64,000 bases of DNA from Candidatus Woesearchaeota archaeon (GTDB lineage: Archaea; Nanobdellota; Nanobdellia; SCGC-AAA011-G17; JACPIM01): NCBI GenBank assembly GCA_016188045.1, contig JACPIM010000004.1, forward strand, positions 8,493-72,492, given 5' to 3'. Below, in pieces: positions 19,328 to 20,880 of the stretch. The position numbers and the translations under genes are program-made. Numbering within the stretch: position 1 is the first letter of the stretch; each line of letters opens with the position of its first letter. Below the pieces are notes generated by a model that did no database searches, was not told the DNA's origin, and worked only from the letters and a program-made list of their open reading frames with translations.

Positions 19328-20880
19328 ATGGAAATAAGTAAACTAAAGAAAATATCAGATTATGAATGGGAAATACCAAAACAAGGAGATATGTTAGTTC
19401 CTGGAAGAATCATAGCATCTAAAAAACTAATTGAAGAAATGGATGAGAAAGTATACGAACAGACATCTAACGTAGCCTGTTTGCCTGGTATTCAAAAATA
19501 TTCATTTGCAATGCCTGACGCCCACTGGGGATATGGTTTTCCAATTGGTGGTGTAGCAGCATTTGATATTAAAGAAGGAGTTATTAGTCCCGGCGGCATT
19601 GGATTCGATTGTGTAAATTAAATTATTTACAACGAAAAATTAATTGCGGCATGAGGCTTATAACTTCTAACTTAACAATCAAAGAAGTTCAGCCTAAATT
19701 AAAAGAACTAATAGATCACTTATTTAAAATAGTACCAGCAGGAGTTGGTTCTAAGGGTTTTTTAAAAGTTAATCAATCTCAATTTAAAGATATTATGAAA
19801 ACAGGAACAAAATGGTGTATTGAGAATAATTACGGTTGGGAAGAAGATTTAAAAAAAACAGAAGCTCATGGTTGCATTACTCAAGCTAATCCGGATAAAG
19901 TTTCACAAAAAGCAATTTCTCGTGGTTTAAATCAGTTAGGCACATTGGGTTCGGGTAATCATTATTTGGAAGTCCAGGTTGCTCATGCTTCCTCAATTTT
20001 TGAACCAGAAATAGCAAAAGTTTTCAAGATTCACACTCCAGAGCAAATAGTAATAATGGTACATTGTGGCTCTCGCGGTTTTGGTCACCAAGTTGCCAGT
20101 GATTATCTAAAAGTTTTCGACCAAGCCATGAAAAAATATAATATAACTGTAAAAGACCGCGAGTTAGGATGTGCCCCTTTTAACTCAGATGAAGGCCAGG
20201 ATTATTTTCAGGCAATGGCTTGTGCAGCCAATATGGCCTTTGCTAATCGTCAAGTTATTTTACACAGAATAAGAGAAGGATTTTCTCATGTTTTTAAAAA
20301 ATCATCAGAAGACTTAGAACTAAATTTAGTTTACGACGTGGCTCATAATATAGCAAAAATAGAAAAATACAAAATAGATAATAAAATAAAAGAAGTAGTA
20401 GTACATAGAAAAGGCGCTACTCGTTCTTTTGGTCCAAATAATCCAGAACTAATTTCAGAATATCAAAAAACAGGCCAGCCAGTTATTCTTGGTGGTTCAA
20501 TGGAAACTGGATCATATCTATTAGTTGGAACAAAAAAAGCAGAAGAAGAAACCTTTGGCTCAACAGCTCATGGCTCAGGTAGGACAATGTCAAGAGCCCA
20601 AGCTAAAAGAGAAGTTAGAGGAGACAAATTACAAAAAGAAATGGAACAAAGAGGAATTTACGTTAAAACCGTTTCCATGTCAGGTTTGGCAGAAGAAGCA
20701 GGGATAGCTTATAAGCCGATTGAAACCGTTGTTGACTCATTAGATAAATCTGGAATTTCAAAGAAGATCGTAAAATTAGTTCCTCTCGGAAATGTAAAAG
20801 GTAACGCAAACTTAAATTTTATACAACTAAGCGGCTTTTTGATAGCACTGCTTGTTTTATTAATGAATTTAATCCTTTAA
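19328..20880 (+). CDS. rtcB: RNA-splicing ligase RtcB, coding sequence interrupted by a 29-nt insert
   Basis: ORF 19328..19621 carries [19 protein letters not shown]...PGGIGFD. ORF 19609..20880 (other frame) carries INCGMRL...GSGNHYLEV...HNIA...HRKGAT. Removing 19610..19638 gives the canonical contiguous GIGFDINCG. Confidence 0.8.
19610..19638 (+). other. candidate BHB-type intron in rtcB (29 nt, contains in-frame stop)
   Basis: Helix UUCG(19604-07)/CGAA(19633-36) and helix UGUAAA(19612-17)/UUUACA(19626-31) place both junctions in unpaired bulges on opposite strands, either side of the 4-bp helix. Confidence 0.4.

Follow-up and report, generated by a model that had tools for sequence, protein, structure and literature searches.

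How is a gene to be read when its frame breaks off inside the metal-binding loop of the protein that it encodes and resumes, 29 nucleotides (nt) further on, in another frame? The question is raised by rtcB, the gene of an RNA ligase, in a 64-kb stretch of DNA from Candidatus Woesearchaeota archaeon (contig JACPIM010000004.1), which as a whole is referred to here as the window; its G+C content is 29.6%, and its nearest relatives are Woesearchaeota/Nanoarchaeota (DPANN) metagenome assemblies. The answer argued for below is that positions 19610..19638 very probably constitute a genuine endonuclease-type intron, predicted in the rtcB pre-mRNA and marked by a motif of the bulge-helix-bulge (BHB) type.

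The broken frame and the restored protein

The gene, its ribosome-binding site and its two predicted exons are placed as follows in the window.

19328..20880 (+), rtcB, broken after GGIGFD
19315..19324 (+), Shine-Dalgarno (SD)-like site AAGGAGGGAG, read from the sequence, 5' of the rtcB ATG at 19328
19328..19609 (+), predicted rtcB exon 1, amino acids (aa) 1-94, last residues GGIGFD
19639..20880 (+), predicted rtcB exon 2, aa 95-507 plus stop, first residues INCGMRL

The first open reading frame (ORF1, 19328..19621) starts at the ATG at 19328 and ends at a TAA at 19619-19621, thus encoding 97 aa. The second, ORF2, lies in the other frame, is open from stop to stop from 19588, is listed from a TTG at 19609 and extends to 20880, reading ...INCGMRL and overlapping ORF1 by 13 nt (19609-19621); none of its start codons is preceded by a site comparable to AAGGAGGGAG. 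These ORFs confirm what a preliminary description of the window had claimed, namely that rtcB is split, with ORF1 ending in GGIGFD and INCGMRL resuming in a different frame 29 nt on.

All frame-restoring deletions of 20-44 nt around the break were enumerated. The removal of 19610..19638 (TGTGTAAATTAAATTATTTACAACGAAAA, 29 nt) is the only one that yields both a continuous frame and the motif GFDINCG, exactly as had been proposed; with the deletion shifted by one base, GFE-I or GFD-F takes the place of GFD-I. The predicted exon-exon junction after removal is GGAUUCGAU/AUUAAUUGC (here and below, a slash marks a junction, a cut or an insertion point), and the predicted spliced-junction k-mer of rtcB is GGCATTGGATTCGAT/ATTAATTGCGGCATGAGG. 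The joined product of 507 aa matches the whole Pfam RtcB profile in a single stretch (567 bits) and aligns without gaps through the junction with the RtcB of P. horikoshii (4dwr, E = 3e-173; GGIGYDINCGVRL). Residues D94 and C97 of the window protein correspond to the Mn-binding Asp95 and Cys98 of the P. horikoshii enzyme, in the numbering given in PMC10630183. The orthologue alignment that the preliminary description had called for reveals no insertion between GFD and INCG at the protein level: the motif GFDxxCG is contiguous in 120/120 of the best database homologues of the spliced RtcB.

Both exons of rtcB are under strong purifying selection. Relative to the related locus L064, at dS 0.6-0.85, the ratio of nonsynonymous to synonymous divergence (dN/dS) has a value of 0.024 in exon 1 and of 0.053 in exon 2; relative to L001, exon 2 has 0.063, and across comparisons both exons stay at 0.02-0.06 over dS 0.6-1.4. 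No further stop or frameshift was seen in the approximately 1.5 kb of rtcB.

The insert as a probable bulge-helix-bulge intron

The preliminary description had also proposed that the insert folds into a UGUAAA/UUUACA hairpin beside a UUCG/CGAA helix, with the junctions in bulges on opposite strands. This arrangement was found, with the bulges at 19608-19610 and 19637-19639 and the inner hairpin pairing as UGUAAA(U)/(A)UUUACA; its parts are listed below.

19610..19638 (+), predicted intron UGUGUAAAUUAAAUUAUUUACAACGAAAA, 29 nt, 17% G+C, in-frame UAA at 19619-19621
19596..19647 (+), BHB motif, from a rule-based scan and a constrained fold
19596-19602 with 19640-19647 (+), outer exon-exon helix, weak, with G-U pairs and one bulged base
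19604-19607 (UUCG) with 19633-19636 (CGAA) (+), central 4-bp helix, no G-U
19608-19610 (+), 5' bulge, A19608 U19609 / U19610, 3 nt
19612-19618 with 19625-19631 (+), inner helix, 7 bp, after a G19611/A19632 mismatch
19637-19639 (+), 3' bulge, A19637 A19638 / A19639, 3 nt

In the canonical archaeal BHB, the endonuclease cuts after the second nt of each 3-nt bulge beside the 4-bp helix, a rule that derives from the geometry of tRNA introns at position 37/38. When the insert in rtcB is searched for this motif, as had been suggested, the rule places the cuts at 19609/19610 and 19638/19639, which are the two junctions demanded by protein homology. Equally good motifs, defined by a central helix without G-U, an inner helix of at least 6 bp and an outer helix of at least 3 bp, occur at 312 of the ~14.1 million position pairs on both strands of the window, i.e., at ~2e-5 per pair, and the junction pair had been fixed independently by protein homology. 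Weaker BHB-like motifs are common in the A+T-rich window, and a scan for BHBs whose removal fuses open frames proved too unspecific where genes are so tightly packed, with hundreds of matches at ordinary gene boundaries.

Predicted micro-introns in rtcB of relatives

The spliced RtcB was compared by tblastn with 140 fetched loci (L numbers below). Interruptions of rtcB are frequent in related archaea, and nine further distinct micro-introns of 11-32 nt were found in the rtcB genes of Woesearchaeota/Nanoarchaeota whose proteins share 62-94% aa identity with that of the window. Their holders are L015/AR20, L020 and L005, with two each, L085, L004, L076 and the group of L063, L064 and L137. The distinct positions found are seven, in two motifs (HWG/YGF and GGIGFDINCG). 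The nine introns are given with both cut sites.

L005, L063 and L137, site A (HWG/YGF), 32 nt, after nt 1 of the Y69 codon, GGGG-AU/A ... CCCU-UU/A
L020, site A, 32 nt, after nt 1 of the Y69 codon, GGGG-AU/U ... CCCU-UU/A
L004, site A, 30 nt, after nt 1 of the Y69 codon, GGGG-AU/C ... CCCU-UG/A
L076, site A, 30 nt, after nt 1 of the Y69 codon, GGGG-AU/A ... CUCU-UU/A
L015 (closed AR20 genome, CP010426), site A, 32 nt, after nt 2 of the W67 codon, CCAU-UG/A ... AUGG-AA/G
L015, site B (GFDINCG), 32 nt, after nt 1 of the D94 codon, GGUU-UG/A ... AACC-AC/A
L020, site B, 30 nt, after nt 2 of the I95 codon, UGAC-AU/U ... GUCA-AG/A
L085, site B, 32 nt, after nt 1 of the N96 codon, AUAU-AA/G ... GUAU-UG/A
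L005, site C (GG/IGFD), 11 nt, after nt 1 of the I91 codon, GAGG-AA/A ... CCUU-AG/U

In all nine, the central 4-bp helix is fully paired, with 3-nt bulges beside it, and the cuts set by the rule restore the conserved motif, either at the HWG/YGF site or in GGIGFDINCG. For instance, only the BHB-rule cut of the L085 intron yields the invariant INCG, where a naive cut would give IDCG, and for L004, L076 and the site-B intron of L020 the candidate that restores the motif is, of all those near the break that preserve the ORF, the rule-conforming one with the longest inner helix. The length of the 30-nt introns is divisible by three, and yet they contain in-frame stops; they are therefore not translated insertions. 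The inner-helix sequences of the four site-A introns at the Y69 position are unrelated to one another.

The ten introns, that of the window included, were placed in a splice-site-anchored alignment with constant anchor sequences, since unanchored MAFFT misplaced the short intron ends, and the structure counted was H2 (4 bp), bulge and H3 (5 bp). Paired cells amount to 96.7%, versus 50.6 +/- 4.5% after shuffling (0/500 shuffles reach the observed value), and sliding the registers by 1-3 columns leaves 40-56% of the cells paired; 9/9 pairs vary on both sides across the ten introns. The claim of the preliminary description that the insert is a BHB intron is thus supported by the cut rule and by nine comparable rtcB micro-introns with covarying helices.

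Two of these introns deserve a separate remark. The 11-nt intron of L005 (1498-1508, AUUAACCUUAG) lacks an inner helix: the predicted 5' cut falls within a 7-nt loop that the 4-bp helix GAGG/CCUU closes, and an exon-exon helix CCCG/CGGG adjoins the GAGG/CCUU helix. In size it stands at the known lower limit of BHB-type introns, and its gene carries a 32-nt intron and an intein as well. This 32-nt site-A intron, in turn, is identical in L005, L063 and L137 though the flanking exons differ, and shows two loop-region changes in L064; by analogy with the 82-92% exon identity between the window and L137, its identity hints at constraint on the intron sequence.

Gain and loss among close relatives

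The closest relatives differ in which introns they have. L137, which over its aligned part (aa 1-146) is 97-100% identical to the window at the aa level and 82-92% at the DNA level, lacks the 29 nt exactly at the junction, reading through GGTTTTGAT/ATAAACTGC; it has the 32-nt intron at site A (aa 68/69), where the window has none. The loci L063-L067 share the pattern of L137, and in them gene callers give a 68-aa and a 417-aa gene, followed by archease. L001 (88% aa identity) has no insert in rtcB. This precise presence and absence in L137 and L063-L067 versus the window implies, as far as can be read from the sequences, that rtcB introns at two sites were precisely gained or lost inside a shallow clade. 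A similarly precise gain and loss has been described for cbf5 introns (PMC2738675).

The insert itself recurs in an independently built assembly: a Logan contig from run SRR12113424 (L141), found through the 409-aa ORF that starts at ATG 19651, is 100% identical to the window over 19504..21313 (1810 nt), insert included, though it possibly derives from the same reads. An exact-sequence look-up of the 97-aa ORF1 gave no match.

tRNA introns and splicing machinery in the window

Next to rtcB the window encodes its activation factor, and elsewhere it carries tRNA genes that are themselves interrupted.

20946..21371 (+), archease gene (RtcB activation factor), Pfam PF01951, 8e-39, 65 nt downstream of rtcB
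33076..33217 (-), tRNA-Leu(UAA) with two BHB introns, from a permissive Rfam scan, 35.7 bits
33150-33193 (-), D-loop intron of tRNA-Leu, 44 nt, GGUC-AA/A ... GACU-UC/A, inner helix 9 bp
33122-33133 (-), anticodon-loop intron of tRNA-Leu, 12 nt, CUUA-AG/U ... UGAG-AA/A
32949..33034 (-), tRNA-Thr(GGU), with a 12-nt A/U-rich anticodon-loop insertion at ~32985-32996

The order rtcB-archease is kept in the relatives L063 and L064. The tRNAs of the window are three, and tRNA-Trp has no intron; ARAGORN found tRNA-Trp only, an Rfam scan at gathering thresholds found two tRNAs, and the permissive Rfam scan was needed for tRNA-Leu. Without its two introns, tRNA-Leu is an 86-nt class II tRNA. The preliminary description had counted three introns in two tRNAs; all three insertions are real, and the two of tRNA-Leu are BHB introns. 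For the tRNA-Thr insertion, a perfect 4-bp central helix was sought and none could be written; it reflects either a relaxed motif or ambiguous boundaries. The D-loop intron of tRNA-Leu implies that the organism processes BHB introns at non-canonical positions, which elsewhere in archaea go with endonucleases of broadened specificity (PMC5829648).

A Pfam scan of 70 further ORFs detected no other gene split into partial-domain pieces, and rtcB is the only interrupted coding gene detected within the 64 kb.

Weighing the intron against other explanations

It is nevertheless important to set out what weighs against an intron in the window rtcB. The same Pfam scan of 70 further ORFs found no EndA gene in the 64-kb window. 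The free minimum free energy (MFE) structure of 19590-19655 takes another pairing, with an unremarkable fold z-score of -1.57. The outer exon-exon helix is weak, having 3 pairs in strict register and, in the constrained fold, 4+3 with one bulged base and G-U pairs among them, and a G/A mismatch occupies the first position of the inner helix; the motif is therefore slightly relaxed, and the weak outer helix means that an endonuclease tolerant of relaxed motifs is probably needed. As to the comparison with relatives, the aligned rows are analogous introns at neighbouring sites, not orthologues, and for some relatives the BHB rule picked the register among at most three protein-equivalent options. 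Finally, the 29-nt intron has no diverged second copy, L141 being identical and perhaps built from the same reads, so that its support comes from the analogous introns at neighbouring sites and not from covariation in the 29-nt intron itself.

On the energetic point, the BHB-constrained fold has -8.3 kcal/mol versus -9.5 kcal/mol for the MFE structure, a gap of 1.2 kcal/mol. Among the eight introns tested, six have a constrained fold within 0.2-1.2 kcal/mol of the MFE, and for the 11-nt intron the two are identical. Thermodynamics alone neither backs nor refutes the BHB of rtcB.

Among the other explanations, the one that survives best, unlikely as it is, would be a recently inactivated pseudogene, in which a 29-bp insertion broke rtcB and the BHB-like fold is a coincidence in A+T-rich DNA. 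Weak BHB-like motifs are indeed common at 29.6% G+C, the fold z-score is not significant, and DPANN genomes are reduced, so that some functions may come from hosts. Chance would, however, have had to put a motif of ~2e-5 per pair on the one junction pair that homology had fixed, and the same structural rule is obeyed ten times, with covariation. Decay is likewise hard to reconcile with a 1.5-kb gene that has no other stop or frameshift and a dN/dS of 0.02-0.06 on both sides of the break, in a genome that needs a ligase for its intron-containing tRNAs and has an intact archease gene.

Translational recoding, either by a frameshift in the 19609-19621 overlap or by a 29-nt hop as in phage T4 gene 60, is less probable still. 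It can draw on the 13-nt overlap of the ORFs, on the hairpin just downstream of the break and on the fact that cbf5 introns were formerly misread as frameshift sites (Yokobori et al., PMC2738675). A frameshift would add ~9 residues (..LNYLQRK) between the metal ligands D94 and C97, where 120/120 homologues are contiguous, and inspection of 19604-19621 found no slippery heptamer of the form X XXY YYZ in GAU UGU GUA AAU UAA. Hopping would have to start from GAU, but no landing codon that matches it stands before AUU, where the bases are GAAAA, and no stop directly follows this take-off codon. Moreover, frameshifting cannot explain the stop-containing inserts of relatives that are multiples of three and lie at varying positions.

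The idea that rtcB encodes two separate polypeptides (1-97 and a C-terminal piece) that assemble, like the split proteins of Nanoarchaeum, is hardly credible. Split genes are known in nanoarchaea, and gene callers annotate both pieces separately in relatives; the second piece, however, has neither a ribosome-binding site nor a plausible start, as the first ATG (19651) comes after C97 and the TTG at 19609 has no SD, versus a strong AGGAGG before 19328. The pieces lie 29 nt apart in different frames, the break falls inside the GFDINCG metal-binding loop and not at a domain boundary, and its position varies among close relatives (aa 68/69 vs 94/95). Equally hard to credit is an assembly or sequencing artefact: the window does come from a metagenome assembly, but the Logan contig is identical over 1810 nt including the insert, a structured 29-nt insertion is atypical of homopolymer or indel errors, and analogous inserts occur in many unrelated assemblies, among them the closed AR20 genome CP010426.

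Other kinds of intervening element were considered for 19610..19638 and rejected. An intein is ruled out, as 29 nt is not a multiple of three and contains a stop, and the insert is far too short for a group I or group II intron. An E-value scan of the whole window with Rfam returned the three tRNAs only and nothing at 19328-20880.

Proposed mechanism and its consequences

If the insert is a BHB intron, the known archaeal pathway suggests how it would be removed. In the transcript, UUCG at the end of exon 1 would pair with CGAA at the 3' end of the intron, and this 4-bp helix would be flanked by the inner hairpin and the weak exon-exon helix, with the junctions in 3-nt bulges on opposite strands. 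EndA would then cut after the second bulge nt on each side, releasing the 29 nt and leaving a 2',3'-cyclic phosphate and a 5'-OH. The exons would be sealed by a 3'-P/5'-OH ligase, i.e., RtcB, helped by the archease encoded downstream. RtcB is, to our knowledge, the only archaeal ligase known for 2',3'-cyclic phosphate and 5'-OH ends. We infer excision, ligation and the role of RtcB as ligase of its own mRNA; since a predicted BHB intron lies in the ligase gene, the known EndA/RtcB pathway suggests that RtcB probably must join the mRNA from which it is made.

An unspliced rtcB mRNA would give only the 97-aa fragment because of the stop UAA at 19619-19621. New RtcB would consequently be made only in cells that already hold RtcB, and either the protein or the spliced mRNA would have to be inherited for rtcB to be expressed. 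This self-dependence would create no new vulnerability, because the tRNAs need the ligase anyway. Ligase output would at the same time be tied to endonuclease and splicing-pathway activity: the need for cleavage by EndA and ligation by RtcB may couple ligase synthesis to the activity of the pathway. The autoregulatory loop that the preliminary description had seen in this is speculative.

In a wider context, splicing of mRNA by the tRNA machinery would no longer stand as an isolated case, given a second gene family from another superphylum in which a gene can hold several introns and these come and go rapidly. Genes of this kind are annotated as fragments or pseudogenes, as the 68-aa and 417-aa calls and the three pieces in the closed AR20 genome illustrate, and such fragment annotation can distort completeness and metabolic inferences for DPANN genomes.

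Relation to known systems

The nearest precedent is the BHB intron of the crenarchaeal cbf5 pre-mRNA, reportedly described by Watanabe in 2002 and Yoshinari in 2006. In both cases, the interrupted gene encodes an RNA-processing enzyme, the intron is short and of the BHB type, and the tRNA-splicing endonuclease is inferred to excise it before the exons are ligated; its gain and loss follow a patchy pattern among close relatives, and annotation misses it or reads it as a frameshift. The differences are nonetheless considerable. The host gene here is rtcB, in DPANN (Woesearchaeota/Nanoarchaeota), and not cbf5, in Desulfurococcales/Sulfolobales; an rtcB gene may hold more than one intron, and its insertion points number seven over two motifs, whereas cbf5 has a single site; and rtcB encodes the ligase needed for the splicing reaction itself. 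Splicing of cbf5 has, in addition, been demonstrated experimentally, whereas that of rtcB is predicted.

According to Yokobori et al. 2009 (PMC2738675), cbf5 was the only confirmed archaeal mRNA intron, and it is still the sole case cited in the available portions of endonuclease papers from 2018 and 2025. No description of rtcB mRNA introns was found in the searchable literature, whose coverage is incomplete, so that an earlier description is possible; nor was a mention of them found in the accessible parts of a 2023 RtcB review, of a 2026 review of non-canonical splicing and of a 2026 preprint on 208 complete Nanobdellota genomes (bioRxiv 10.64898/2026.05.13.725050). The mechanism is of the known archaeal BHB type; what is new is the gene, the lineage, the several introns per gene and the pathway's own ligase as host.

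With the hBHBh' introns of tRNA and rRNA, the rtcB introns share the 3-4-3 geometry and the cut positions, as well as a central helix in which the end of the 5' exon pairs with the 3' end of the intron, the arrangement seen at tRNA position 37/38. They also match the tRNA introns of the same genome in size (11-44 nt). The rtcB intron differs in lying in the coding region of an mRNA, where ribosomes compete with folding, and in its weak outer helix. The hBHBh' motif is said to go back to Marck and Grosjean in 2003. For archaeal tRNA and rRNA introns it is reviewed in PMC4090602.

A more distant parallel is found in HAC1/XBP1, where a short mRNA intron is likewise removed by a protein endonuclease cutting RNA loops, its removal changes the frame, and the 2',3'-cyclic phosphate and 5'-OH ends are joined, in metazoa, by RtcB with archease. 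There, however, IRE1 acts on twin stem-loops, as opposed to the EndA and BHB proposed for rtcB, and the substrate in rtcB is the ligase's own mRNA, with no sign of stress regulation. Lastly, the inteins of rtcB (e.g., in P. horikoshii PH1602, from the extein structure) occur in the same gene, the same conserved motifs and the same lineages, but they are in frame, translated and removed from the protein, whereas the insert of 29 nt breaks the frame, has a stop in it and has to be removed at the RNA level.

Predicted introns beside intein sites

The rtcB genes of relatives carry inteins (Pfam Intein_splicing PF14890, with or without LAGLIDADG) at three sites, numbered here in the spliced coding sequence (CDS).

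Intein site a, YGF/C, L013, spliced-CDS nt 213
Intein site b, GFDIN/C, L005, L014/L083, L016, L017, L079 and L087, spliced-CDS nt 288
Third intein site, before HGSGR, L136

In the same numbering, the seven intron positions are nt 200 and 205 (site a) and 271, 280, 282, 284 and 286 (site b), and every one of them is upstream of an intein site by 2-17 nt. With a uniform null assumed, two independent clusters would each fall within 17 nt upstream of one of three sites with a probability of the order of 1e-3, a post hoc figure. No allele pairs an intron at most 13 nt from a site with an intein at the same site, and the only intron that coexists with a neighbouring intein is the 11-nt one of L005, the most distant (-17 nt); with 4 alleles carrying a site-B intron and ~7 a site-b intein, the numbers behind this exclusivity are too few for statistics.

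One conceivable, although doubtful, explanation is that the micro-introns protect rtcB from intein invasion: an insert would split the ~20-bp DNA target of the homing endonuclease and be removed harmlessly from the RNA. Alternatively, the most conserved motifs may simply be preferred by introns and inteins alike. That such introns stand so near intein sites provides a testable idea for why they persist.

The window itself carries large inteins with LAGLIDADG endonuclease domains in two other genes, for an SMC protein (1675-aa open frame, 6466-11490 (+)) and for a T2SSE/type IV secretion-family ATPase (1012 aa, 25917-28952 (-)), which implies that intein pressure exists in the lineage.

The C-terminal tail and neighbouring genes

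The preliminary description had further drawn attention to an unusual hydrophobic extension at the end of RtcB. It is real, comprises 25 aa and recurs in a minority of relatives.

20803..20877 (+), C-terminal extension of RtcB, 25 aa after the usual ...GNVKG end

The tail resembles a tail anchor, with a mean Kyte-Doolittle value of 2.4 over the last 19 aa. Similar tails of 22-25 residues are present in 5/106 top homologues with a locatable ...VKG end (P0020, P0024, P0061, P0067 and P0117), and tblastn matches reach residues 503-507 in L002, L007, L012, L070, L073 and L078. These sequences suggest a membrane-tethered RNA ligase in a subset of DPANN archaea. A different peculiarity is seen in L068 (379-2334; P0004, 651 aa), a high-G+C RtcB homologue with a ~170-residue tandem repeat (query aa 137-307 matched twice) that is either a real duplication or an assembly chimera.

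Divergently upstream of rtcB lie genes for an OapB-family protein and an MMR_HSR1-type GTPase (window 18158-19185 (-)), as they do in L063 (1132-2159, 94% identical); in L064, a TrmB-family regulator takes their place. Elsewhere in the window, a complete MgtE transmembrane domain is found in each of two neighbouring ORFs (45132-46366 (-)), which have the appearance of a duplicated pair or of a transporter made by two genes rather than of a split gene.

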